Assembly: GCA_033286805.1 (NCBI GenBank)
Contig: GCA_033286805.1_4727.1
Reading direction: 5' to 3' (one strand)
DNA: 64,000 bases
Origin: a phage
Shown here: in pieces, positions 12,872 to 42,400 of the stretch
Numbering within the stretch: the first letter of the stretch is position 1
Layout: every line of letters starts with the position of its first letter
The notes under the pieces: model-generated
Database searches by the model: none
Told to the model about the DNA's origin: nothing
What the model saw: the letters and a program-made list of their open reading frames with translations, nothing else
Position numbers and translations under genes: made by a program

Positions 12872-15800
12872 TTATCTTACGTTACTGCTATTCTGCTGTT
12901 CGCTGAACCAACCGTACACCTTGAGATCGGTACCATATCTCAGTGCGATATACGCATTCAGCGCAGCACAGAACAAAGACGCGAATGCCCATATCAGCGA
13001 AGGATCAACATCTTCCGTTACCACTGGGAGAGTATTATCCGGTTCCCATGATGGAGAACTGTCCATGAACGTCGTGTACCATTCCCGCCGTTGTTCTTCA
13101 GTGGTAAAGTCGCTATGGGGTTCCAATGCTTCTTTTGCCAGACGTCGATATTCGAACATATGCGTTGCTAAAGCCGATGAGTTACCAGATTCGCCTTCAT
13201 AGTTCGGATCCACCGCATAACAGAGTTCTGTGGAATCTAACAAAGCGACCGCCTGTGTGATGCTGTCGGCAGTGCCTGCACCATAGAGCTCGATAGACCG
13301 CGAGAGCTTCTCACAGAACGCATTTAACGCGGCAGGATTGGACACCTGAAGGTCAAGGCCTAATGTCCACGGATAGTTACTGAATACACCCGTAAACCGC
13401 GGCATAACACCCAACAGATGTTGTCCGATTACAGCACGGTTATAAACAGCCCGGTTATAGACTTGAAACGCAGCCTCCAGGGCTTGGTTATAATGACGAC
13501 GAAGTTCATCACGCGTGTTGCGGAACCTGTTTGCCGCGAGACTTGTGGCTGCAACGCTACAAACATCGTAATTGGTGGACGAGAGCACAACCTCGTTAAG
13601 ATCGAACGATTCCTGTTTCAATGTTCCGCTAACAGCTGCCGCTTCGCTGTTCGCTTTATCGACAACTGTACTCAAAGCGTTGATGTAACGTTTAGCTCGG
13701 ACCTCCAACCATTGTGCGATGCCGAGAATATCCACCGCAGCTTTAGCAAGATCGCGTGCATTCACGATTTCGTTCTTCAACGCCCCTAAACCTTTATTTT
13801 CAGGCGATGAGGCTTGTTGACGAATCATGCTGTTCAACATGGTAAGCAGATTATCCAACTCATGTCCGCTGACCTTGTTACGCGCATCGGTAATCGGCCC
13901 TTGCAGGAATTTACGGCAACCATCGTTGTATCGAATCAGTTTATCCACATCGATAGATTCGTTCGTAGATTCCTTGAACTGATCCTTCAATTCTTCACGG
14001 TAGTCGTGGATTTCACTTGCGAGATTATCGATAGTGATACCGTCATGTCCAAGAAGAACTTTATTGAAGTTACCTTTCTCGAATGCCAGAGCAAGACCTT
14101 CACGAATCTTAGCGAGTTTATCCTGATCGAGTTCACGACCGTTCGATAGCTCTTTCACTTCCGAGCTGATTAATGCCGAAACGTTACCCAGATTGTCGGT
14201 AACTCCTTTGAACGCTCCCGACCAAATCGTTCCTACTTCAGCATATTTCGCAATGGTCTGAATACCGACGGTGTGTAGCGACGCTAAACGTTTCTTCGTG
14301 CCTTCGGTAAGCAGAGCGTCTTTAGCTCGCGTAAGCTGACTGTTATTAGCTTCCGCCTGCTGAATCGCTGCTTTCGCACTTCCATTACGCCAGCTCTTAA
14401 CCAGCCAATCAACCAAACGTTTTAGGATATTGACGGTGTATTCCATTGTCCGCCGTAACGTTTCCCACGCGCTTTCTGCGGTATAGATGCCGTACCCTTC
14501 CATCTTCAACGCTTTCAAGCTTGTTTGACGTGCCAACCATTCTACCGTTGCAGAGCAAACGTTTACTAATGCTTCCAGGTAGTTGTAATAGACGTCTGTT
14601 GCAGTTGTTTCGTTGAACTTTGAATGCAGATAGAACTGATCGTAAAGTTCGTCGTCATCGCCGAAGGCATCATAGTTCCACAGTTCTGTATCACAACCTG
14701 TACCGCAGAAGACGTCAGCTGTCGTAAACTCTTTAAGCGCTTTAGCTGCGTCATTTGTCAGGAATTTACCTGTTTCAACTACATCGTCAACATTAAGCTT
14801 GGGGAGTTCGTCGGTGACTGGCTCTTCCAACATCAGCATATTGAAGAATGTGCTGTACTTGTATCCGAGCCATTTTGGATAACTGCTTTCAGGGATCGTA
14901 GACAGCGGCTTGATTTTCTTGGCTTCAGCCAATGTGTCTTTTGCGACCTGATATTGGTTTTCCCCAGCCTTGACGCGACGTAATGCTTTTTCTTCCAACT
15001 GCTTAAGCTTGGCATGGCGTGCTTGTGCTGGAGCTTCAACAAGTTTTTGTACCGACCGCATTGCAGAAATCGCTTCTTTTAATACGATCATCGGCATACG
15101 AACTTTACCGTCGTCGAAACTAAGAGCGCGAGCGACACGTTTACTTACGACCGGCTTATCATGGATATTTCGTTCCACCCACGATTTGTTTGCGTAAGTT
15201 TGAGCGATCTGCTGTTGGATATTTTCAAGGTATTTCCAGCTGCTGGATGCTTTATTATCCAAAAGCGGATTCGGTCCCTTCTTATCGAAAAGTTTCAGAA
15301 TCGGACCAAAGAAACCTTCCTGTACGAGTTCGATACGCGTGTATCCGTCAGCCGCTTCGATTTCTTCTTGGGTTTTGTCCCAGAGCTGTTCACTACGGAC
15401 AGCAGTAGCTGTTTCAGATACCGACATAACAAGCTCGGCAACAACTTCAGCGCAGGTCAGTACGGTACGCACGCATTGCAGTAGCATACGCTGGTAAACG
15501 ATACGGGCGTTTTGTAAACGTGCGATAACCGCTAAATAACCGATATTGTCAAGACGTTCGTCGGCTTGAGCAGAGTCAACACGTTCTATCAGTTGTTTAA
15601 CCAGCGCGGCTGTTTCCGGATAATCGTTCACGACGTCACGCATAATTCGTGATGCGAAAACCGCGGTACCTAAAACAGTGAGGAGTGTTTTACTATCCCA
15701 TTCTTTTGGTGTCGCTACCGATTCAGTAGGGATGAGATTTCCCGCCTGGTCGAAGTACGGCATAAGGACATTGATATCAGTAGACGGAACAGCAGTAATT

Positions 15801-16477
15801 GCGTTATACTCTTCATCCGCACCATCGTTGCCAGACGGCTGTAATGCAAGTGCTTGTTCAAGGATTTTGCGGTCAGCGGCATAAAGCGCCGACAGAGCTT
15901 GCGTTGCCGCAACCAAATCAACGATCGGCGACCAGAGCTGTGCGAGCTTACCTTCGTATTTCCGTACAGCGATAGCAAGGTCTTCTTTTACGTCTGGATG
16001 ATTGATTAAACCACCCAATGTTTCATGGATGGCAGAAAAACGTTCGGAATGTGCTTGTGTCAACGCGGTAAAATCGTCAACGTACGACGCATTTTCTTCA
16101 AGGCGTGTAAGTTCCTGCTCCAGGAGATCTTTTACTTGCGTAGCAGATGCGTTTCTCAACTGTTCACCGATAATCGCGATGGCTTTATCGACAACGCGAC
16201 AAGCTTCATTGAAGCCGGTTGTTGAAGGTAACTCGGTCCATAATGCCAGCGGCTTACCTTCCATTGCGTCAGGAAGGGAATATGACAACATTGCTAGTTG
16301 TTGACGTGATACCTGTTTGTCACGATGTAATGTTTCTTTCAACGCCAGAAGCTCATCAAGACCCACACTGCTAGGGATCGTGGGATGTGATACAGCGTTG
16401 ATGTTTTCTGCTAATGACTCAAGAACCAATAAACCATTTTCAGCGGAAGATAACCCTGCTTTAAGGTATTTGTTCAT
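12872..16477 (-). CDS. large putative virion/internal protein (1201 aa), paralog family
   Basis: ATG with GGAG SD; contains RIELVQEGFFGPILKLF, related to the motif in the 430-aa paralogs. Confidence 0.7.
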   Translation of the reverse strand: MNKYLKAGLSSAENGLLVLESLAENINAVSHPTIPSSVGLDELLALKETLHRDKQVSRQQLAMLSYSLPDAMEGKPLALWTELPSTTGFNEACRVVDKAIAIIGEQLRNASATQVKDLLEQELTRLEENASYVDDFTALTQAHSERFSAIHETLGGLINHPDVKEDLAIAVRKYEGKLAQLWSPIVDLVAATQALSALYAADRKILEQALALQPSGNDGADEEYNAITAVPSTDINVLMPYFDQAGNLIPTESVATPKEWDSKTLLTVLGTAVFASRIMRDVVNDYPETAALVKQLIERVDSAQADERLDNIGYLAVIARLQNARIVYQRMLLQCVRTVLTCAEVVAELVMSVSETATAVRSEQLWDKTQEEIEAADGYTRIELVQEGFFGPILKLFDKKGPNPLLDNKASSSWKYLENIQQQIAQTYANKSWVERNIHDKPVVSKRVARALSFDDGKVRMPMIVLKEAISAMRSVQKLVEAPAQARHAKLKQLEEKALRRVKAGENQYQVAKDTLAEAKKIKPLSTIPESSYPKWLGYKYSTFFNMLMLEEPVTDELPKLNVDDVVETGKFLTNDAAKALKEFTTADVFCGTGCDTELWNYDAFGDDDELYDQFYLHSKFNETTATDVYYNYLEALVNVCSATVEWLARQTSLKALKMEGYGIYTAESAWETLRRTMEYTVNILKRLVDWLVKSWRNGSAKAAIQQAEANNSQLTRAKDALLTEGTKKRLASLHTVGIQTIAKYAEVGTIWSGAFKGVTDNLGNVSALISSEVKELSNGRELDQDKLAKIREGLALAFEKGNFNKVLLGHDGITIDNLASEIHDYREELKDQFKESTNESIDVDKLIRYNDGCRKFLQGPITDARNKVSGHELDNLLTMLNSMIRQQASSPENKGLGALKNEIVNARDLAKAAVDILGIAQWLEVRAKRYINALSTVVDKANSEAAAVSGTLKQESFDLNEVVLSSTNYDVCSVAATSLAANRFRNTRDELRRHYNQALEAAFQVYNRAVYNRAVIGQHLLGVMPRFTGVFSNYPWTLGLDLQVSNPAALNAFCEKLSRSIELYGAGTADSITQAVALLDSTELCYAVDPNYEGESGNSSALATHMFEYRRLAKEALEPHSDFTTEEQRREWYTTFMDSSPSWEPDNTLPVVTEDVDPSLIWAFASLFCAALNAYIALRYGTDLKVYGWFSEQQNSSNVR

Positions 16478-16558: not shown

Positions 16559-19357
16559 TTACGCTAATTTACCGAAACCGGCTTTCTGTAGTTTCTCGTT
16601 GATCAGTTTTGCTTCCGCGAAAACATAATCACGATACGCGGTCACTAACCCGTCCACCCGTGAACGCAAGGCTTCTTCGAAGCTATACCACGCAGCGATT
16701 TCACGAATCTGTGCGTTGATATAATCAACGGTTGAGCGAAGCTCGGTTGCGTTTTCTTGCGGGATGGCTTTCACCTGGCGAGCAACGTCATTTAAACGAC
16801 GGAACTGTGTTTCGATTTCTTTAAACTTACTGTCGGCAAGTTTGCTGAATTCGTCACCAGAACGGGTAAATAACAGATAGCTGTTGCCGTCAAGTGCGGT
16901 CGCTAACTGCTGAAGTACGTTGGTGTCCGGATACACAGGAGTACCGCTTTGCAATACTTTCTCACCGAATTCCGCGAAGTCCTTCGGCGGTAAGTGCGCA
17001 GACGTTGTCAATTCGTTGAAACGGAAAGTCAGCGAATTATCATACAGCATCCGGTACGCTTCCATACCCTGTTTCATGGTACCGGCCAGGTTAGCCAGAC
17101 GCGGAGCAATCTCACCCTCTTTAGCGCGTTTCTGATCTTCTAACGCCCCTTCCAGTTCTTTACATTGGTCGTTCAGATACACGATACGATCGGGACGCAG
17201 ACGACGCATCTCACGAAGAATAGTATCCAGCTTGCCTTCCTGGAAATAACCTAACGTTAAAGACGTACACGCTTGCTGAAGACGATCGAAGACCGGTAAA
17301 GTCACCATCTCCTTACGGATACCATCAACAATCGCAGAGACAGCCGAAAGTTTCTGTTCTGTCGTTAATGGAACATCAGAGGCCGACTTGCTGGGTGCAC
17401 CAACAACGTTACGCATTGCGTCGGTATCCTCGGTTTTATCAACCTCTTTACGAACATGCTCATCAGGAACATAAACGTTAGCATTACGTTTCGCCTGCTT
17501 GATGGCGTCGTTGGCCGCTTTTTCGGTGGCTGCTACGCTATCAGCACGTTTCTTCAAGAGTTCAATAATCCAGAGCAACAGACGACGAATCGCAGTATAG
17601 GCCGTCGTGATGATGACACCGATAACAGCCATCTTCATGATACCGAACGATTCCATGGTCGGCTCTAATGCCTGGTCTGGCATATACCGTTCACGCAGTT
17701 CCAGATAGATCTGCTCATCTGGTTTGCTGACCTCACCACGATGCGAAGTACGATAGATGGCTTCGTCAATCTCAACAAGATCTTTGCGGGCCTGACGGTC
17801 TGTTTCGGTCAGATAAGCGCAGCCAGATACGTCGTCTTCAAAACTTTCGAACTTAAAGAAATCGACAACCATCTGGGCAAGCATCTCCTTCTTAGCAGGA
17901 TCGAGTGTCTTCGCATCTTCTTTTTGCTTAGCCGCTGCTTTATCGAATTTCTCTTTGTAATCATTCAGGGGTTTCACTGCTCTTGCTTTCAGTGCCTGAT
18001 AAATGATTTTCCAATCATCGTCACGTTCGAGGATGATGAAATGGTTTTTGAGTTCGAAAGCGCGATAGCGTGCAACGAGCTGTTCCACCTGAATGTGGGC
18101 GAGTTGGATATCCATTAGCCAACGGGACATCGCTGAAATCAAACGACTAAAAGCAAACAGCGCTTGATACGCGAGTTTCATATGCGTCTCGTACAGCTCT
18201 ATATCGCCGCTCCGGATATCGGCTGTTGGATTCATTTCTTTCGTTGCTTTGAAGATCTGCTCTGCTTCTTTCAGCGTCTTTTCGAACTTAACGTCATTAA
18301 ACGCGGTGAATGGTTCAGCGAGCTCATGCATTTTATCATGGAGTTCACGAACCCAAGCTTCCTTGTTGTTGCGGATGACGCTTCCATCGTGAAGTTCGGT
18401 TTGGTGTTTCTGTACCCATTCTTCGACGATATCTGCTGCGGCGACAACACCGACGTTTTTACCAACGAGAGGAACAATGGCTTCAAGTGTGCCGCGTCGG
18501 ACACCCCATAACCGATTTACCGAATCGTAGAATTCTCTGATCTCGGCTATATGTGGAACAATATTTAAGAAGGTGTTCCCGTTATGGCTCATCGATGAAG
18601 CCATTTCCGAGAATTGCTGGAACTTAATGACGACATCAGGGATCGTGTCCATCAGCCATTCTGCAGTATACTTCGCTTTCTCTTTCAGATTTTTGTCAGC
18701 GATTTCTTTAAGGTTAATCGCGCTACCGTATCCTGCAAGTTCGTTGTAGACGTCGTTAACCGTCATCTCTTTATCCAGCATTTCTTTAAAACGTGGATAA
18801 TCTGCACCTAACGCATCGATGACTTCTTGGATGATGTCGTCTGTGGTGGCGATAAATTTATTCGTACCCCCGTAATGTTTCCAGATTTTCTGTAGCGTCT
18901 TCTTAAAGAATTCGAAGACGAATGTCCAGATACGCTTAATGAGTTCCCAGACTTTCTTCGCACCATCGACAAACAGTTTAGAGACCTTGGCAACGAATCC
19001 TTCCTGTACCAACTCAACGCCGTTACGTGATGGGATTTCGGTGAAGAAAGCATCCGGTAGTTGTTTCGGGAACGCATCACCAAGTCGCATACGCAATTCG
19101 GGTACATCGGCACGAGAAATACCACGCGTCGTTAGCTGCTCGTGAAGACGAACGTTTTCTTCACCAGAGGCTACGAATTCGTTAACGTCAAATGAAACCA
19201 GTTCTTGATCTTCGGTGGTAACGACGCTTGAACCGTCACTGGTTTGGATGTCTTCGTCAGGGAATGCCATGAGCATACCGTGACGCATTTCAACCACTCC
19301 GTAATCGGTTGCTAAACCGAATTCGTTGTGGTCTGGGGTAATAACTGGGATACTCAT
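16559..19357 (-). CDS. large putative virion/internal protein (932 aa), paralog family
   Basis: ATG with AAGGAG SD; contains GVELVQEGFVAKVSKLF. Confidence 0.7.
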   Translation of the reverse strand: MSIPVITPDHNEFGLATDYGVVEMRHGMLMAFPDEDIQTSDGSSVVTTEDQELVSFDVNEFVASGEENVRLHEQLTTRGISRADVPELRMRLGDAFPKQLPDAFFTEIPSRNGVELVQEGFVAKVSKLFVDGAKKVWELIKRIWTFVFEFFKKTLQKIWKHYGGTNKFIATTDDIIQEVIDALGADYPRFKEMLDKEMTVNDVYNELAGYGSAINLKEIADKNLKEKAKYTAEWLMDTIPDVVIKFQQFSEMASSMSHNGNTFLNIVPHIAEIREFYDSVNRLWGVRRGTLEAIVPLVGKNVGVVAAADIVEEWVQKHQTELHDGSVIRNNKEAWVRELHDKMHELAEPFTAFNDVKFEKTLKEAEQIFKATKEMNPTADIRSGDIELYETHMKLAYQALFAFSRLISAMSRWLMDIQLAHIQVEQLVARYRAFELKNHFIILERDDDWKIIYQALKARAVKPLNDYKEKFDKAAAKQKEDAKTLDPAKKEMLAQMVVDFFKFESFEDDVSGCAYLTETDRQARKDLVEIDEAIYRTSHRGEVSKPDEQIYLELRERYMPDQALEPTMESFGIMKMAVIGVIITTAYTAIRRLLLWIIELLKKRADSVAATEKAANDAIKQAKRNANVYVPDEHVRKEVDKTEDTDAMRNVVGAPSKSASDVPLTTEQKLSAVSAIVDGIRKEMVTLPVFDRLQQACTSLTLGYFQEGKLDTILREMRRLRPDRIVYLNDQCKELEGALEDQKRAKEGEIAPRLANLAGTMKQGMEAYRMLYDNSLTFRFNELTTSAHLPPKDFAEFGEKVLQSGTPVYPDTNVLQQLATALDGNSYLLFTRSGDEFSKLADSKFKEIETQFRRLNDVARQVKAIPQENATELRSTVDYINAQIREIAAWYSFEEALRSRVDGLVTAYRDYVFAEAKLINEKLQKAGFGKLA

Positions 19358-19794
19358 GCATTCTCTCCTTGCAGTGCGTTAGCGAAAGCCGTTGCGAGTT
19401 GCGCAACCAGTTTCGGATCAACACCTTCGATAACGTCAGGCAGCCCTGCGGTTTCCTGGTCACGAACGGCGGAGGCTAATAACAGCATGGTTTCAGGCGC
19501 GGTTGGCTCATGCACCATGCGGTAACGCAGGCACCAGAAGTAGCGAGCAACGTCTAACGCATCAGCCAGCCCGATAACCAGCACCTTGTTCAGCTTATCC
19601 AACCCTTCACGGATTTTAGGGAGATGTTCACGAACGAAGATGCTGTCCGCAGTCAGATCTTCTTTTTCAGCGAATACCGGCATGCTGTAACCGGCGATGT
19701 AACCAGCGGCAATACTTAATGCGCGGGTCTGTTGTTCGGCTGGGAAGTCACGTACCAGGTCTTTCAGCTGAACGGCGAAATCAGAAATATTCAT
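19354..19794 (-). CDS. hypothetical protein
   Basis: 146-aa ORF, AAAGGAA SD; stop overlaps the downstream start (ATGA). Confidence 0.6.
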   Translation of the reverse strand: MNISDFAVQLKDLVRDFPAEQQTRALSIAAGYIAGYSMPVFAEKEDLTADSIFVREHLPKIREGLDKLNKVLVIGLADALDVARYFWCLRYRMVHEPTAPETMLLLASAVRDQETAGLPDVIEGVDPKLVAQLATAFANALQGENA

Positions 19795-19826: not shown

Positions 19827-21137
19827 TTAGGCGATAATGGAATCAAGAGTCGCTGCGGTTTTGAACAGATCGCTGTTCATTGTAGAAGAAAGGACTTGCT
19901 GAATTTCTTCCTGTTTAACCGCTTTACGAACCCCAGGACGAAGGATAAGCGTAACCATCTGTGAAAAGGTACGATTATTGTTCATCGCACTCAGCGTTTC
20001 ATCGATTGTTTTGATGGCATCCAGCGTCATGGAACGAACATCGCTTGGGATATCACGATCTTTCAAGCGTATAATTAAATCTTGTTTGATTTTACGGAAT
20101 CGTTCCATGTCGTTATCGTAAATGCTGTATGTCGGATCTAACCAAACAGAAAGCGCGGTTACAGCGACAACAACCAACACGCCGATAGCACCAACAGAAG
20201 CTAAACCTATCGCCATCATAGAAGCTATAGTAGCATCCATGATGAAGGAGAGCCAGAACATCGTTTTGGACTTCACGGAGTCTTTGCTATAAAGCCGATA
20301 CATTTTAGCAAGCCCGCTAACGAGATACTCCCCACCACCATGACGCGTAGCGAACTGATCGGCCATGAATTCGGAAGCAACGTCGGTATATCGTCCAGCG
20401 TTGTTTACATTTCGTAACTGCATTGCTCTGTTAGACACGTAAACCGTGTACCAGACACTACCATCGTCTGAATCACTGATTTTGTCTACGTCGACGTTGG
20501 TATCCAACGTTTTGTTTAACGCTTTCGCCAGTTCGATACGTTTTACCTTATCGGTTGTCCCCAACAGTTCACGCTGTACGGTCATGATTGAGGCTTCGAC
20601 ACGAACCGTTTCCGACAATGTTTCAAGGAAGGTAAATGCGTGCCCGATTTCATGCAGCATTATGGCTGCTTTTTCTTCCGGAAGAAAGGGTTCTGTCGCT
20701 GTTAGCAATTCATACGTGATGGCAGAACGAATCTTCAATTCTTCAAAGATACCGTAAACACGACCTTTTTCTAAATCGACGTAACCGACAGGCGTATCTT
20801 TAATCTTCTTAAGGAGCGTAACGCCATCAGCACCGCGCATCCATAACCGATGATAGTCTGCCAGAATTGTGTTGTTTGTCGAAATATCCGGTGGGTACAC
20901 GTAGGCATTCATTTGGCCCATTTTCACGTCGACCGAGAATTCGATGTTCAACCCCGTATAGCGTTTAACCATCTCGGTTAAACGACCGTCCTTGAAAACG
21001 TTTAAAACCTCTTTTTTATCCAGTCCCTGTTTGCTTCTGAAGAACTCGGTCATTTCCTTGAACAAGGAACCATCTTGAAACTTGATGGCCTCCATCGTTA
21101 ATTCGTCATGACCGTACACGCGTTGTAGTAATGACAT
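19827..21137 (-). CDS. putative zinc metallopeptidase (HExxH) with C-terminal transmembrane segments
   Basis: MLHEIGHAF motif; hydrophobic stretch WLSFIMDATIASMMAIGLASVGAIGVLVVVAVTALSVWL. Confidence 0.5.
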   Translation of the reverse strand: MSLLQRVYGHDELTMEAIKFQDGSLFKEMTEFFRSKQGLDKKEVLNVFKDGRLTEMVKRYTGLNIEFSVDVKMGQMNAYVYPPDISTNNTILADYHRLWMRGADGVTLLKKIKDTPVGYVDLEKGRVYGIFEELKIRSAITYELLTATEPFLPEEKAAIMLHEIGHAFTFLETLSETVRVEASIMTVQRELLGTTDKVKRIELAKALNKTLDTNVDVDKISDSDDGSVWYTVYVSNRAMQLRNVNNAGRYTDVASEFMADQFATRHGGGEYLVSGLAKMYRLYSKDSVKSKTMFWLSFIMDATIASMMAIGLASVGAIGVLVVVAVTALSVWLDPTYSIYDNDMERFRKIKQDLIIRLKDRDIPSDVRSMTLDAIKTIDETLSAMNNNRTFSQMVTLILRPGVRKAVKQEEIQQVLSSTMNSDLFKTAATLDSIIA

Positions 21138-21358: not shown

Positions 21359-23110
21359 ATGAGCGAACAAGAACGAAAACCTAAGAAGAAACTGCTCGGT
21401 ATTCAATGTCGACACATCAGCTATAACGAAGCGAACGATGGCAGCAAGAACGACCTCATGATCGCAAAAGAGATCATGTTCTTCGATGATAATACGCAAG
21501 CGACGAATCTTCGCTTCTTCGAGAATTACAAACGTCCGTTTTGGGTGACGGTAGAGAGTAAACGTAAGAACAAATATAAAAAGGAAAGCGAGAAGCTCTC
21601 GCATGTGCGTCGCTATGATGTCCGCCAAAGTGAACTGGTTGAAAAGATCAGTTCGGTGCTTTATAAAAGACGTGCTGATGACAACACCCGTCTACAGCAG
21701 CTTGCACGGAGTCCATACCTCTATGGCACGGACGTTAGCGCCAGCTGTTATTTAAAAACCCAGTACAACACAAAATGGCCGGAATACGTCGATAAATTAC
21801 CCGCTTCCATTGCCTGTTTCGATATCGAAACCGACGTTGTCCACGGGCACGGTAAGATCGTCTGTATGTCTATTACAATGGGATACAATGCGATACTTTG
21901 CTATACCAAGGACTTCGTTGGTCATATTCCGAATGCGATTGAGAAAACCCATGAGAAGATTCGATATTACCTGGCCGAACGTCTGAATACCAAAGAAGAT
22001 CCTCATGCGTTCGAAAAATATCATTACGATGTGCGAATCGTAGAAAGTCCGGCGCAAGCAGTCATCCAGTGCATGCAGAAGGTTCACGAATGGCAGCCGG
22101 ATTATCTCCTTGGCTGGAATATCGCGTTCGATATTCCGCGCATGCTCCAGGCACTGAACGAGGAAGGGTATCGTCCCGAGGATGTTTTCTCCGATCCTCG
22201 TGTACCACCTAAATATCGTATTGCTCGCTGGGTACCACCGAAGACAGACAAGGTATCTGCTTCAGGTCGTAAAACCAACCTTACCCTTGAGCAGACCTGG
22301 CCGATGTTTTATACGATGGCCACATACCAGGTTATGGATGCGATGTGCGGTTATAAGTTCGTTCGTTTAGGAAGACCGGATGAAGGACGCTATTCACTCG
22401 ATGCGGTGTTAGAGCGAAATAAATGCCATACGAAATTAAAAGCGATTCCTGGTACAGAGGGGTTCACGGAGCTTGCGTGGCACGAAGAGATGCAAACGAA
22501 CCATCAAATCGACTACGGCGTATATAACCTTTGGGATAACCAGGGTATCGAGGCGTTGGACCAGAAAACAAAAGACTATTCGATGACCATCCCTATTCGT
22601 TTGGCGGCGTCGGATTTGAAAGATTTCAGTTCTAACCCTAAACGTATCTGTGACAAACTTTTCTTCGTTTATCTTAACCGTGGGGAAGTCATGGGATGCA
22701 CTGCCGACGACATGACCCAGGAAGAAGATAAGTGGGTTATCTCACGAACCGGACATATCGTCACATTACCGTGCGATCTCATGGCGGACAACGGCATTCA
22801 TCTCTTCTGGGATATGCCGAACCTGAGAAGTTATATCCGTCTATTCGTTGCAGACCTCGACATTAGCAGTTCATACCCAAACGGGCAGATCCTGTTGAAT
22901 TTATCCAGAGCATGTGTTTTTCGTGAGCTCTCGCGCATTGAAGGCGTCTCTGACTATCAATTCAGGAAGTTAGGTATCAACTTTATTACCGGAGGTAAAA
23001 CGAACGCTGTAGACTTCTGTAGAATCGTTTATAAAGCACCATCGATGTTCGAACTCTTAGAACATTTCGATGCAACGCGTCCAAAAGGGGAAGCGCGGAC
23101 CATCGAATGA
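21359..23110 (+). CDS. family-B DNA polymerase N-terminal fragment (3'-5' exonuclease domain plus palm motif A)
   Basis: Exo I CFDIETD, Exo II GWNIAFD, Exo III YNLWD, motif A DLDISSSYP; ends ~75 aa after motif A with no motif B or C. No SD before the ATG. Confidence 0.6.
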   Translation: MSEQERKPKKKLLGIQCRHISYNEANDGSKNDLMIAKEIMFFDDNTQATNLRFFENYKRPFWVTVESKRKNKYKKESEKLSHVRRYDVRQSELVEKISSVLYKRRADDNTRLQQLARSPYLYGTDVSASCYLKTQYNTKWPEYVDKLPASIACFDIETDVVHGHGKIVCMSITMGYNAILCYTKDFVGHIPNAIEKTHEKIRYYLAERLNTKEDPHAFEKYHYDVRIVESPAQAVIQCMQKVHEWQPDYLLGWNIAFDIPRMLQALNEEGYRPEDVFSDPRVPPKYRIARWVPPKTDKVSASGRKTNLTLEQTWPMFYTMATYQVMDAMCGYKFVRLGRPDEGRYSLDAVLERNKCHTKLKAIPGTEGFTELAWHEEMQTNHQIDYGVYNLWDNQGIEALDQKTKDYSMTIPIRLAASDLKDFSSNPKRICDKLFFVYLNRGEVMGCTADDMTQEEDKWVISRTGHIVTLPCDLMADNGIHLFWDMPNLRSYIRLFVADLDISSSYPNGQILLNLSRACVFRELSRIEGVSDYQFRKLGINFITGGKTNAVDFCRIVYKAPSMFELLEHFDATRPKGEARTIE

Positions 23111-23208: not shown

Positions 23209-23655
23209 TTAATTATTGTTGGTGGGGTTATCGTCCGGTTTATATTCAATGCCGTAGGCGACGTAACGGTCTGTTGTATGGACGACAAGCGAGATAGGGA
23301 AATCATAATGCATAGTTTTGTCTCGAACGAGCTGAGTAAAGAGATCCATATAACGTATTAAGTCTTCACTGGTGTAATCAGAAGGGAAGAAGACATCGAT
23401 GGTTATTGAATCTTCATAGAGGCGTATGACCAACTTATCCAGAAGGTCGGCATATTGGTTAGCCGGGGTGACGTCCAGCTGACAGATGTCACGATCTCCT
23501 TCGTCTCGCGATACCCACATCGTGGTATCCTGTAATGAGGTTTCAAGGATCTCGAAAACACATTTTGCTGTAAGTCTTAGTTTATTTGTTACGTCATGGT
23601 TAGGTGAATAATGGTCACGGATGTTTTTCACTGCGTCTTTGATAGAGAAAGTCAT
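23209..23655 (-). CDS. small paralog-array protein (family member A)
   Basis: Start moved to the ATG with AGGAA SD (MTFSIKDAVKNI); C-terminal DFPISLVVH...YGIEYKPDD shared with the neighbouring paralogs. Confidence 0.6.
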   Translation of the reverse strand: MTFSIKDAVKNIRDHYSPNHDVTNKLRLTAKCVFEILETSLQDTTMWVSRDEGDRDICQLDVTPANQYADLLDKLVIRLYEDSITIDVFFPSDYTSEDLIRYMDLFTQLVRDKTMHYDFPISLVVHTTDRYVAYGIEYKPDDNPTNNN

Positions 23656-23686
23656 TGTTGCTGTTCCTGTTATAGTCAACATATAG

Positions 23687-24935: not shown

Positions 24936-25394
24936 TTACCCATTAGCTCCTTCTTCGTCTGGAGAGTATTCCATCGTGTAGAATTCATAACCGTCGGAAA
25001 ACTTGAGTGTTAATGTAATAGGGAAATCGCACGGCATAGCTGATTTCGTAAATGCGTTATTAGCAACATCAGCCAACCGACGTATAGCATCAGTCCCGCT
25101 GACGCTGAATGGTAGTTGTATGTTGATAAGGATGCGGTGCTTGTAAACATAGAAAACAACGGTGCTGTCAAGATAAACGCTATGGAACGGTATTGTTGGG
25201 ATGCGTTCCACGATGGTAAAATACGTCCCGTCATTATCGCTATGTCCCACCGACCAAATATCGGATTTGCGTAGATTTTGTTTGAGAGATTCGATACTTC
25301 GAGTGACGGTATCAGCAACAGGTGCGACGTAAGCGTCTTTATGCGAGTCGAAAAGTTCGTTGACGTTAGATTCGAATGAATACATTGTTGCCAT
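24936..25394 (-). CDS. small paralog-array protein
   Basis: C-terminal DFPITLTLKFSDGYEFYTMEYSPDEEG; GAGGT SD. Confidence 0.6.
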   Translation of the reverse strand: MATMYSFESNVNELFDSHKDAYVAPVADTVTRSIESLKQNLRKSDIWSVGHSDNDGTYFTIVERIPTIPFHSVYLDSTVVFYVYKHRILINIQLPFSVSGTDAIRRLADVANNAFTKSAMPCDFPITLTLKFSDGYEFYTMEYSPDEEGANG

Positions 25395-25460: not shown

Positions 25461-25955
25461 TTACTCTTCTGTGTTTTCATTGTCTGGATCGTAGTGGAAT
25501 TCGAACAGCCCTGAACCGTCGTGCCCGTTGATTGTTAGTATAACGGGCATATCGAATCCTCGGACACGCGAATGAAAACACTGTGCTAATTTTAGTTTGG
25601 CATATGCCGCTATTTCATTGATGGCAATACACGACTCACCTGTTATACTCAGTATAACGTCGATACTAATGATGTTATCATGCAACGCAAAACGCCAGCG
25701 ATCGATACGATTATTATCTTTATCGGTTGTCTCGTTTACGAGATAGACTTTATCATCAACCGACAAAGCGGGACTCCAGCAACGTTCGTTTATTAAATTC
25801 GCCTGGAGTTTTAGTATCGTCTGATCGATAATATCCCAACACGTAACCAGCGTGGTGTCAGGCACTGAGTAGAGAAGGGCGTGCACTTTATCCTTTATTT
25901 TAAGTGCTTCCGCAGGACGTCCGCAAATACCATGCATTTCAACTTTCTTATTCAT
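25461..25955 (-). CDS. small paralog-array protein
   Basis: C-terminal DMPVILTINGHDGSGLFEFHYDPDNE; ORF-track start is GTG 25961, ATG at 25955 preferred. Confidence 0.55.
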   Translation of the reverse strand: MNKKVEMHGICGRPAEALKIKDKVHALLYSVPDTTLVTCWDIIDQTILKLQANLINERCWSPALSVDDKVYLVNETTDKDNNRIDRWRFALHDNIISIDVILSITGESCIAINEIAAYAKLKLAQCFHSRVRGFDMPVILTINGHDGSGLFEFHYDPDNENTEE

Positions 25956-25998
25956 ATTCACTTCTTTCTTAATCTAAATGTTAGTTGGGGTGGGATGC

Positions 25999-39441: not shown

Positions 39442-42400
39442 TACATAAACTCCTCGATGATGCAAATCCCATTAGCACCACGCCCACCAGGCTTAGCGGT
39501 TCCTGAGTAAGAGTTATCGTAAGCACCGCCACCACCCGAACCAGGCGCGAGGCCGTTATGGGCGGTGCCAACACCAGCGCGACCGCCACCGCCCCAATAT
39601 GACGCACCCCCACATCCACCGACGGCAAGAGTACCGGCTTGTCCATCGTTACCGTCTCCGCCCGGAATGCGTATATCCCCGGTAGTAGGTACGCCCCCAT
39701 AGCCACCGCCAGTGTTTGTGACAGTTGTTTTTCCTGCGCCTTGCCCGCCGGGAGCAGTTAGCAGGGATGCAAATTTACTATCCCCACCCCCGTTCCCAGA
39801 CGTCGCCCCAGAGCCACCGGAACCACCAGAACCAATTACAACAGAATAACTAGCAGCTGTTACCGTTATAACCGAAATTACTGTTCCGCCAGCGCCTCCC
39901 CCAGCGCCAAAAAACGTTTCGCTGTTGGAATAAGCCTGACAGCCACCGCCGCCACCGCCGCCACCGGTTATTGTTACTCTAATCCGTTTTGTTCCTTGTG
40001 TTGGGGTGTACGTCCCTGACGATGTGAAAACACGCATGTTCAGTAAACGTCCGACATATCCGCTAGAATCGGCTAAACCAAGATCTTTAGCTGCTAACGT
40101 GATATTAGCTGTACCGTCAAACGGTTTACCGTTAATCGTGCGCGCGGTCTGCAACTTCGTCGCCGTTGCTGCGTTTCCTGATGTGTTCTGGTTCCCCGCA
40201 GCGTTAACACCCGGCAGATTGATGTTCGCACTACCGTCGAAAGATACCCCACCAATGGTGCGGGCTGTTTTCAGTTTTGTCGCCGTGGCAGCATTACCGG
40301 TTGTGTCTTGGTTACCGGTGGTGTTTACCCCAGGCAGGTTGATATTTGCCGTTCCGTTAAATGAAACACCGCCAATCGTCCTTGCTGTTTGAAGCCTCGT
40401 CGCGGTAGCGGCGTTACCCGTCGTGTTCTGGTTTCCGGTTGTGTTCACACCAGGGATACTATCTTTCGAGGTGTAGATCTGTGCCCATTCTGACCAGTTC
40501 GAATCGGCCGCATCACGACGTGAACGTAGGTAAGCTGGAGCGTATGCACCTGAGGTACCTGACCACCCAATGAGGATTTCACCTTCACCGACCGATGAAG
40601 CCCCTTTAAGATGAATGACGTTACCATAAGCGGTGGGATACCCGTTATTGTACGCTTCATACATCTGGATGCCCGCATTGCTGCCCTGAGCCGTGTTAGC
40701 TAATGCCGTAACACGACCTTTGGAGGCGAGAGCGGTAATACTGAAGCTAATATCCTTAGTACCGTCAAAGGCGACCCCATTAATCTTCCGTGCTGTTTGG
40801 AGTTTCGTGGCGGTAGCCGCATTACCAGAGGTACTCTGATTACCTGCTTTGTTCACGCCAGGCAAATCAATGTTGGCTGTTCCATCAAAGGACACGCCCC
40901 CTATGGTTCTCGCTGTCTGGAGTTTTGTTGCTGAGCCAGCGTTTCCGGAAGTGCTTTGATTACCTGCCGCGTTGACACCTGGTAGGTTAATGCTAGCAGA
41001 GCCATCAAAAGAAACTCCACCGATCGTGATTGGTGTTTTCAATTTCGTGGCTGTCGCAGCATTACCCGTCGTATTCTGATTGCCAGCCGCATTAACGCCT
41101 GGTAATGCGATATCGGTCGTACCATCGAACGCGACACCACCGATTTTACGGGCAGTCTGTAGCTTGGTCGCTGTAGCCGCGTTGCCGCTGGTATTTTGCG
41201 TGCCCGCTTTATTTACGCCTGGTAAATCAATGTTCGCAGTACCATCAAAAGAAACACCCCCGATGGTTCTCGCGGTCTCAAGTTTGGTTGCGCTTCCTGC
41301 GTTTCCGCTGGTGTCTTGGTTTCCCGCTGCATCAACACCCGGTAGACTGATGCTGGCCGAACCATCGAAACTCACACCACCGATCGTAACAGCGGTTTTC
41401 AATTTCGTAGCGGTTGCAGCGTTCCCCGTGGTATTTTGGTTACCTGTCGCATTCACACCCGGTAATGCAATATCCGCTGTTCCGTCAAAGGCAACGCCAC
41501 CGATTCTACGTGCAGTTTGTAGCTTGGTTGCACTAGCAGCGTTACCGCTGGTATTCTGGGTGCCAGCTTTGTTAACACCAGGGAGATCGATGTTAGCAGA
41601 ACCATCGAAGCTAACGCCACCTATCGTTCTTGCAGTAGCAAGTTTAGCTGCTGTAGCAGCGGCGTTACCGACTTTTAACCATTCGCCCCATGGACCATCC
41701 TGGCCGTTCCATGATGCCGTTAAACTACGTACGTAAATATTGCCGGTACATACAGTGTAACGTTGCGTTCCACCGAATTGCCCGGTTGGGAGCACTTCAA
41801 TGTAACCTGCGGCATTTGCTTCAGGGAAATTGTGGGCGACGTCCGCGTTCGTTGATACTGGTTTAGACCAAATACCCACAGACGCTTCAACCGGACCGTA
41901 CGTATTCAGATTTGCGTCGGTGGGAAGTTGTCCTCGAAAACGCTGGAATTGTGTTGCCGATAACCCCAACGTTGTTTGCATGCTTTCAATGCTGGATTGC
42001 TGAAGTAACGTCCGTGCTGTCGACGTAATCACGGTAAGCGCAACTTTATTAACACCGGTGAAATACGGGAGTTTGTCTGCTGATGTCGCTAAACCTGAAA
42101 AGGCGGTCAGTAATGCGTTAAGGGGCTGCTTCCCAGCTAACGCATTTGTTACCGTCGTTGCGAAATTAGGATCACTTCCTATAGCTCGAGCCAGCTTATT
42201 AAGCGTATTTAGCGTCGCTGGTGACGAGTCGATCAGCGCCGTGATCGCACGCATCACAAATTCCGTGTTGGCTATCTGTCGACTGCTATTGTTAACTGCT
42301 GCGGTGGGCGCTGCTGGCGTACCAGTGAATACAGGGCTATTAAGATCCGCCTTGAGGGCGATGAGACGTTTAAGCGCTTCAACATCAACTTTCAGGTTTT

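Follow-up and report, generated by a model that had tools for sequence, protein, structure and literature searches.

We analyzed a window of 64,000 nucleotides of phage DNA (GenBank assembly GCA_033286805.1, contig GCA_033286805.1_4727.1) and concentrated on one open reading frame (ORF) at its positions 19827–21137 on the minus strand, for which the ORF listing gives an ATG start and 436 codons followed by a stop. A preliminary description of this DNA had presented the gene as coding for a membrane-anchored metallopeptidase with an HExxH motif (HEIGH) at the end of a block of virion genes. Both the ORF and its motif proved genuine, the latter being invariant in 188 aligned relatives. Overlooked at that stage was that, judged by its orthologs, the protein itself is packaged in the head and cut by the serine prohead protease. 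Sequence comparison places it among the core head proteins of nucleus-forming jumbo phages and predicts a zinc peptidase of the M48 type, very distant from the characterized enzymes. The gene and its parts, with residues counted in the precursor, are as follows:

19827–21137, minus strand: whole ORF, identified by sequence comparison as the ortholog of Goslar gp067, phiKZ gp84 and SPN3US gp45

21090–21137, minus strand: N-terminal propeptide, residues 1–16 (MSLLQRVYGHDELTME), ending in the x-x-E motif of the phiKZ-type serine prohead protease

20292–21089, minus strand: predicted M48-like (gluzincin) catalytic domain, residues 17–282, of mixed beta/alpha structure on the N-terminal side, then two long helices that hold the active site

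20640–20654, minus strand: HEIGH, residues 162–166, with the two predicted zinc-binding histidines and the catalytic glutamate, invariant in 188/188 relatives

20337–20372, minus strand: EFMADQFATRHG, residues 256–267, the M48-type motif E-x-x-A-D for the predicted third zinc ligand, E256 and D260 invariant in 188/188 relatives

20139–20264, minus strand: hydrophobic helical hairpin, residues 292–333, predicted to insert into membranes (Kyte–Doolittle hydropathy and predicted helices)

19830–20120, minus strand: conserved C-terminal helical domain, residues 340–436 (alignments; predicted helices 343–435)

The window phage is a Goslar-like Escherichia coli chimallivirus. Over the region, its DNA was 92.5% identical to that of Escherichia phage vB_EcoM_Goslar, which belongs to the nucleus-forming jumbo phages of the family Chimalliviridae, and its protein shared 92% identity with Goslar gp067 (annotated as ‘hypothetical’), the 37 differing positions all lying beyond the first 89 residues, which are the same in both. 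Pairwise BLASTP connected the protein to phiKZ gp84 (E 6e-25) and SPN3US gp45 (E 3e-25), and PHROG 2767, a family of ‘unknown function’, matched it over its full length (residues 12–432, E 2.6e-82). Goslar gp067, phiKZ gp084 and RAY gp286 have been grouped as core gene cg22, described as a ‘putative virion structural protein’ (Prichard et al. 2023 supplement, PMC10299810). These sequence relationships identify the window protein as an ortholog of the chimallivirus core head protein represented by Goslar gp067, phiKZ gp84 and SPN3US gp45. It agrees with these three and with RAY gp286, all of which have been detected in heads, in length and in the arrangement of its domains, from the propeptide through the M48-like domain and the hairpin to the C-terminal domain, and we found no difference in kind between it and the Goslar, phiKZ and SPN3US proteins.

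Relatives were detected by tblastn in 218 phage records, all from jumbo phages, with query coverage of at least 80% in 188. They included phiKZ-like Pseudomonas phages as well as phages of Erwinia, Salmonella, Serratia, Ralstonia, Vibrio and Xanthomonas, and were mostly labeled ‘virion structural protein’, with ‘beta-barrel assembly-enhancing protease’ used in two. A profile search of 1.84 billion cluster representatives yielded 3,746 relatives at E ≤ 1e-3 and 1,742 at E ≤ 1e-30. The best 150 of these profile relatives were nearly all full-length, with 410–460 residues, showing that the family architecture is very stable. Conservation counts given here refer to an alignment of 188 relatives, each representing a cluster at 50% identity, across which overall identity drops to ~20–25%.

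HEIGH (residues 162–166) is the only HExxH in the protein, and the protein’s own composition gives a chance expectation of 0.003. A fortuitous motif was ruled out by its conservation across relatives: H162, E163, G165 and H166 were invariant in all 188, as were E256 and D260 of a second motif, E256-F-M-A-D260-Q-F-A-x-R-x-G, which corresponds to the ‘E-x-x-A-D’ helix of M48 peptidases. In an AlphaFold2 model built from a 23-sequence alignment (pTM 0.76, mean pLDDT 74), HEIGH sits inside a predicted helix spanning residues 153–193. When the family profile was compared to PDB sequences, human ZMPSTE24 was matched with an E value of 0.0026. The alignment placed HEiGH of the profile on HELGH 335–339 of ZMPSTE24 and sEflADqFAtRhG on E415-FQADAFAKKLG, where E415 is the third zinc ligand in the published structures. 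The spacing between HExxH and this glutamate is 90 residues in the window protein versus 76 in ZMPSTE24, the extra length being accounted for by a poorly conserved helical insert (residues 181–248).

Domain and structure searches pointed in the same direction. The Pfam family Peptidase_M48 (PF01435) was matched at E ≤ 1 by 15 of 23 relatives, with a best value of 2.5e-5, and Foldseek searches of predicted viral structures (BFVD) recovered the chimallivirus orthologs together with more distant neighbors annotated as ‘Peptidase M48 domain-containing protein’, ‘Beta-barrel assembly-enhancing protease’ and ‘Zincin protease [Bacillus phage AR9]’. Structural alignments to M48-type proteins had 14–18% identity. 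Scans with single sequences gave less: a direct Pfam scan of the window protein returned a sub-threshold M48 trace plus SCAMP and CASP matches on the hydrophobic stretch that are spurious, an NCBIfam scan returned traces (HtpX for SPN3US gp45, E 0.045), and a single-sequence search against PDB sequences returned no match for the window protein. The preliminary description had named an HExxH outside any peptidase fold as the finding that would speak against an enzyme. We found instead M48-type neighbors in BFVD and an alignment of both motifs to ZMPSTE24, with similarity that is remote. The window protein is, therefore, predicted from sequence to be a remote M48-like gluzincin zinc metallopeptidase.

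The classical members of MEROPS family M48, Ste24/ZMPSTE24, HtpX, Oma1 and BepA, are very remote from it in sequence. They also differ in architecture. Ste24 forms a seven-helix chamber and HtpX has an N-terminal anchor, whereas in the window protein, the only hydrophobic helices predicted are those of one hairpin behind the catalytic domain. The phage protein further adds a phage-specific N-terminal propeptide and a C-terminal helical domain, and the cg22 family, unlike those enzymes, is packaged in a virus particle.

Evidence for packaging comes from the orthologs. In virions of Goslar, gp067 was covered to 46.8% by 19 peptides and amounted to ~48 copies per virion (range 32–76), while the gp068 DNA polymerase, at ~0.3 copies per virion, serves as a background control (preprint 10.64898/2026.04.21.720040, Table S4). 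Goslar gp067 was left unmodeled in that study and stands without comment in its Table S4. Among the Goslar virion peptides, we found the active-site tryptic peptide AAIMLHEIGHAFTFLETLSETVR. For phiKZ, the RefSeq note on gp84 reads ‘structural head protein’, on which the head location rests, and the supplement of a size-exclusion chromatography–mass spectrometry (SEC-MS) study records gp84 in infected cells. The cg22 protein is in neither the phiKZ nor the Goslar capsid model, so it must be either disordered cargo or part of unassigned density. On these data from orthologs, the cg22 protein is a packaged head protein present at about 50 copies. After trimming, phiKZ orf84 had 0 transposon insertions in a transposon sequencing (TnSeq) experiment (PMC12676376 Table S2).

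The preliminary description had further held that this protease is of a different kind from the serine enzyme that matures phage heads, and it is correct in this point. The prohead protease, phiKZ gp175 or SPN3US gp245, is a serine enzyme of MEROPS family S80 resembling T4 gp21 (PMC5694885). It shares with the cg22 protein that both are phage-encoded, head-associated proteases, but the two are unrelated in fold and catalytic type, and the HExxH protein is a substrate of the serine protease rather than its equivalent. SPN3US gp45 is a head protein from which gp245 cuts off a 20-residue N-terminal propeptide (PMC5694885, PMC10052503), whose length its authors liken to the capsid-targeting sequences (CTS) of T4 (PMC5694885).

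The processing site is a family-wide feature. E20 of SPN3US gp45 aligns with E16 of the window protein, and in the alignment this glutamate was kept in 185 of 188 relatives, with a small residue (S, A, T or G) at P3 in 177 of 188. Cleavage sites in SPN3US head proteins consist of a small residue, any residue and Glu, for example, AVE-79 and ALE-111, and the x-x-E16 site of the family fits this pattern. For phiKZ, Thomas et al. reportedly described an S/A/G-x-E cleavage motif in 2012. The Goslar virion peptide list contains the semi-tryptic peptide AIKFQDGSLFKEMTEFFR, which begins with A17, directly after E16; the peptide corresponding to the uncleaved form of Goslar gp067 is VYGHDELTMEAIK. As residues 1–89 are the same in Goslar gp067, the cut between E16 and A17 is expected in the window protein too. 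The propeptide MSLLQRVYGHDELTME was identical at 16 of 16 positions even where relatives were only 48% identical overall. Such strict conservation is what one would look for in a targeting signal constrained by the assembly core, and the propeptide is, judged by its sequence, probably a capsid-targeting sequence.

A variation on this arrangement was seen in three metagenomic relatives (P0148, P0150 and P0178), in which the peptidase forms the C-terminal part of proteins of 825–1237 residues. The junction coincides with the conserved cleavage site, x-x-E|(G/S)I, which implies that the prohead protease would free the peptidase from a polyprotein in these cases, although gene-calling artefacts are possible. 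The N-terminal extension of P0148 matched phrog_8131, the SPN3US gp47 family, weakly (E 5e-5), and those of P0150 and P0178 had no solid match.

The long hydrophobic segment that had been reported as C-terminal, and as the membrane anchor, exists and is of membrane type, but it is internal, in the last third of the protein with ~100 conserved residues after it, and is predicted to form a hairpin instead of a single C-terminal anchor. It extends over 42 residues (292–333), with Kyte–Doolittle means over 19 residues of up to 2.57, and the 32 residues from 302 to 333 carry no charge. AlphaFold2 models the stretch as two helices (291–313 and 317–332). A hydrophobic stretch was present at this position in 188 of 188 relatives. 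Its median length of 40 residues (10th–90th percentile 30–49) is sufficient for two membrane-spanning helices, and its N-terminal flank was net positive in 144 of the 188.

This universally present element is also the least conserved region of the protein, with a mean column identity of 0.25 versus 0.61–0.63 in the active-site helices. Of the 37 substitutions that separate the window protein from Goslar gp067, 24 lie inside residues 283–333. The corresponding DNA (window 20139–20291) diverges from Goslar by 31%, versus 5–11% elsewhere in the gene, and contains 24 non-synonymous and 6 synonymous codon changes between phages that are otherwise 92–95% identical. The hotspot was apparent at each divergence level checked; relaxed constraint, diversifying selection or a small recombination patch may underlie this turnover. 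Hydrophobicity that is kept while the sequence varies is the pattern of a lipid-embedded segment, and we predict from the model and hydropathy profile that the hairpin is a membrane-inserting element. The mostly hydrophilic domain of ~100 residues that follows features conserved residues Y340, R346, K359, Q413, L424 and F425, and its part up to about residue 385 is also found in gp051 of Bacillus phage AR9.

AR9 provides the most distant comparison. To our knowledge, this Bacillus jumbo phage encodes no chimallin. Its gp051 (AR9 40783–42060) is recorded as ‘zincin protease, pfam01435’ and not as ‘virion structural protein’. It aligned to the family profile with an hhalign probability of 97% over residues 243–385, a span that takes in the Glu helix and the beginning of the C-terminal domain, and the Foldseek match to it had an E value of 2e-7. 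The HExxH and E-x-x-A-D motifs and at least part of the C-terminal domain are kept in gp051, whereas the long double hydrophobic stretch of the cg22 proteins is missing from it in this single comparison. AR9 in fact encodes two remote structural homologs, the second being another ‘zincin protease’ in BFVD.

The existence of a peptidase family in these phages was already known. Iyer, Anantharaman, Krishnan, Burroughs and Aravind reported in 2021 a conserved, uncharacterized zincin-like metallopeptidase in group 1 (phiKZ-like) jumbo phages (PMC7824862). Like the cg22 protein, it is of the zincin type and encoded among the structural genes of phiKZ-like phages (PMC7824862). The two are very probably the same family; the example given in that study is AMR59696.1. 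Together with AR9 gp051 and the two GenBank labels of the BepA type, that study puts both the family and its peptidase motif on record in silico. Our analysis adds the specific M48 assignment with both ligand motifs and connects the family-wide x-x-E site with a peptide from public Goslar data. It also shows that the hairpin is universal in the family, changes rapidly in sequence and is missing from AR9, and it sets out explicit models that can be tested. The literature we searched contained no functional study of gp84, gp67 or gp45. The present label, ‘hypothetical’ or ‘virion structural protein’, could be changed to ‘head-packaged M48-like zinc metallopeptidase, substrate of the prohead protease’.

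The cg22 gene heads four co-directional minus-strand genes in the window and is separated by a 222-bp gap from an upstream DNA polymerase gene. Its neighbors are:

19354–19794, minus strand: 146 residues, ortholog of Goslar gp066 (phiKZ gp85), ~94% nucleotide identity to the Goslar locus

16559–19357, minus strand: 932 residues, ortholog of the vertex-binding-complex protein Goslar gp065 (phiKZ gp86); 4-nt overlap with the gene for the 146-residue protein

12872–16477, minus strand: 1201 residues, mosaic relative of Goslar gp064, in the variable slot that holds SPN3US gp47

21359–23110, plus strand: divergent DNA polymerase gene at the end of the virion block (PHROG 3011, E 4.7e-178)

Position at the end of a virion-protein block, as originally described, was borne out: the three downstream genes are orthologs of the virion proteins gp066, gp065 and gp064, and the polymerase upstream is divergent and, in virions, at background level. 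Goslar gp66 is a vertex-binding-complex protein on the inner capsid surface (10.64898/2026.04.21.720040). The 146-residue ORF had no BLASTP similarity to phiKZ gp85, and their equivalence derives from synteny and the structural assignment in the Goslar preprint. Goslar gp064 is present at ~110 copies per virion (10.64898/2026.04.21.720040). By tblastn, residues 1–392 of the 1201-residue ORF were 48% identical to gp064, residues 393–657 were unmatched and residues 658–1201 were 98% identical. SPN3US gp47, which occupies the same slot, carries a transmembrane helix; it is essential, a candidate for ejection and highly divergent among related phages. The order of DNA polymerase, cg22 gene, a vertex-complex gene of ~146–150 codons and genes for large virion proteins was the same in the window, Goslar, PA7, phiKZ and SPN3US. 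A scan of 12.5–23.5 kb for sigma-70 promoters and intrinsic terminators gave counts at or under shuffle expectation, as anticipated for a phage relying on RNA polymerases of its own.

What would a membrane-inserting protease do in a phage head? The reading that we favor, with a probability of roughly 45%, is that of an enzyme that is packaged, ejected and then lodged by its hairpin in the membrane surrounding the genome as it enters. It starts from points supported here or in the cited papers, namely, the orthology, core-gene status, predicted peptidase fold with its invariant motifs, virion presence, copy number and N-terminal cleavage; from these, we infer propeptide targeting, ejection, membrane insertion, catalytic activity and a class of substrates. 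The protein would be produced late as a precursor, directed to the assembling prohead by its 16-residue propeptide, which is strictly conserved in the Goslar clade. The serine prohead protease would cut the propeptide away after E16, and ~50 mature copies would remain in each head, outside the ordered shell. At infection, the protein would exit the head together with the DNA, much as other internal ‘ejection’ proteins do, and the 40-residue hairpin would enter the bilayer around the incoming genome, either the inner membrane or that of the early-infection (EPI) vesicle. Insertion would put the catalytic and C-terminal helical domains on one face, from which the zinc site could cut membrane-proximal substrates, be they host proteins or co-ejected phage proteins.

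Three observations support these inferred steps. Goslar gp58, gp60 and gp61, which are packaged in the same particle, are injected and localize to EPI vesicles; Goslar gp208 and gp209, by comparison, are reported to stay on the emptied capsid outside the cell. In T4, ejected internal proteins are recognizable by a short CTS-like propeptide, and the propeptide described here resembles it. Lastly, every cleavage in SPN3US heads is explained by the serine protease, so that head maturation there leaves no cut for a second enzyme to account for. The neighboring SPN3US gp47, with its transmembrane helix, sets a further precedent as an ejection candidate.

The closest functional parallels are the internal proteins IPI–III and Alt of T4 and the Dar proteins of P1. 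These are effectors that are packaged in the head and ejected, and some of them, Alt and DarB, are enzymes. As in the cg22 protein, a short N-terminal propeptide is removed by the prohead protease in all of them, and tens of copies or more are held in the head outside the shell. No sequence relationship exists between these proteins and cg22, the ejection of which is proposed by analogy. None of these T4 and P1 proteins is known to be a protease or to have a transmembrane hairpin.

Several results weigh against the favored reading. The window protein itself scored below the Pfam M48 cut-off (10.7 versus 20.3 bits, E 0.47) and is, therefore, not a curated Pfam M48 member, and a Foldseek search of the model against PDB returned nothing significant, leaving the evidence on the fold remote. 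Cleavage after E16 is documented in Goslar by a single peptide match of modest score (−10lgP 48, 13.7 ppm). Confidence in the modeled hairpin is moderate, at pLDDT 60–80. In phiKZ, orf85–86 were also without transposon insertions and yet can be deleted, so a polar effect may lie behind the gap at orf84. AR9, which is not a chimallivirus, has a remote homolog, which indicates that catalysis is not tied to the EPI vesicle or phage nucleus. In the literature that we searched, Goslar gp67 and phiKZ gp84 appear in tables only. Finally, since chimallivirus capsids assemble on the inner membrane (PMC12908238), the hairpin fits an assembly role equally well.

The last point leads to the best of the rival explanations, which we consider possible but doubtful. 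Here, the protein, and through it the core of the nascent prohead, would be held at the inner membrane by the hairpin, and the zinc protease would carry out a second processing step, for example, freeing the prohead or making extra cuts in head proteins that escape the serine protease, with the copies in virions being left over. Capsid assembly on the inner membrane (PMC12908238) speaks for it, and Iyer et al. proposed in 2021 that the phiKZ-like zincin peptidase makes additional maturation cleavages (PMC7824862). The adjacency and common direction of the cg22 gene with the vertex-binding-complex genes for gp65 and gp66 is in line with this idea, as is the lack of insertions in phiKZ orf84. 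More speculatively, ~48 copies (32–76) would be compatible with 55, that is, five per non-portal vertex, and the Goslar map has unassigned density beside gp65 that a vertex location would fit. On the other hand, all 14 cleavage sites in nine SPN3US head proteins were attributed to gp245, leaving no orphan cleavages (PMC10052503), and the protein is in the ordered capsid models of neither phiKZ nor Goslar. A membrane-integrated protein would also need to be extracted from the bilayer to enter the head. In T4, the CTS-like propeptide marks internal ejected proteins and not assembly factors. The attribution of all SPN3US head cleavages to the serine protease likewise makes it unlikely that the protein processes neighboring virion paralogs, as had been suggested in the preliminary description; the paralogous small ORFs, moreover, lie across the polymerase gene from the cg22 gene. 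If the protein were a maturation accessory only, the result would be an ordinary one.

A more specific form of the packaged and ejected enzyme, which we regard as unlikely, makes the cg22 protease the membrane factor, or one among several, that the virion brings to the EPI vesicle. With the hairpin in the vesicle membrane after ejection, its M48-type activity would be needed either in forming the vesicle from the inner membrane or in opening it or handing it over, so that the genome enters the nascent chimallin nucleus. For either step, it would cut host inner-membrane proteins or co-injected phage proteins. Were this so, the hairpin would be a chimallivirus-specific addition, given that the AR9 homolog is without it, and its fast turnover would be an adaptation to host membranes or defenses. 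For nucleus-forming phages, it is open how the EPI vesicle is formed, how molecules pass its membrane and in what way the genome is passed on to the phage nucleus (PMC12908238). A conserved, packaged protease with a hairpin is a concrete candidate for the EPI-vesicle step or for membrane-bound capsid assembly. GFP-tagged virions, CRISPRi-ART, knock-down by antisense oligomers, Cas13 selection and cryo-electron tomography are already available in the field.

Improbable, in our estimate, is that the protein acts as a clean-up peptidase inside the capsid, degrading propeptides of 100–250 residues so that the fragments can exit the shell before DNA packaging. M48 enzymes do act on unfolded proteins or peptides, chimallivirus heads are heavily proteolyzed with the release of long propeptides, and the cg22 protein is co-packaged with these. 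However, propeptide fragments, for example, of gp47, persist in mature SPN3US virions, and neither the universally conserved hydrophobic hairpin nor the retention of ~50 copies in the mature head would be explained.

Even less probable is a catalytically dead structural protein with a peptidase-like fold, serving as head building block or cargo only. Databases annotate the family solely as ‘virion structural protein’ and catalysis is predicted from sequence, but pseudo-enzymes shed their catalytic residues, and here H162, E163, H166, E256 and D260 were invariant in all 188 relatives while the remainder of the protein diverged to ~20–25% identity. We ruled out a pseudo-enzyme on the strength of these invariant catalytic residues.

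Scarcely credible, despite the combination of a membrane-type hairpin and a protease domain, is the role in superinfection exclusion that had been put forward at the outset, or a lysis-related one, in which the protease acts from the membrane of the infected cell: the protein is encoded by a family-wide core gene situated among structural genes, undergoes cleavage by the prohead protease and is packaged at ~50 copies per head, and phiKZ orf84 has no surviving insertions, whereas exclusion genes are typically early, accessory, variable and non-virion.

Further observations concern the genes on either side. The 932- and 1201-residue proteins had no detectable paralogy to each other by BLASTP. 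On visual inspection, both carry a near-identical ELVQEGF followed by an amphipathic or hydrophobic helix, a module that resembles an x-x-E|G site of the prohead protease joined to a membrane-active helix. The Goslar DNA polymerase gene contains a 1,785-bp insertion (Goslar 14658–16443) with a NUMOD1/HNH homing-endonuclease gene, gp069. The insertion point corresponds to window positions 22851–22874, where the window allele is uninterrupted and encodes 583 residues, compared to 499 in the Goslar annotation. It would seem that a mobile intron or homing endonuclease is polymorphic here, present in one of two close relatives and absent from the other. Past the polymerase, three small ORFs on the minus strand, 23209–23682 (157 residues), 24936–25394 (152 residues) and 25461–25961 (166 residues), are mutually paralogous (BLASTP E 2e-8 to 2e-3). 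The Goslar ortholog of the first of them, gp070, is present at ~166 copies per virion.

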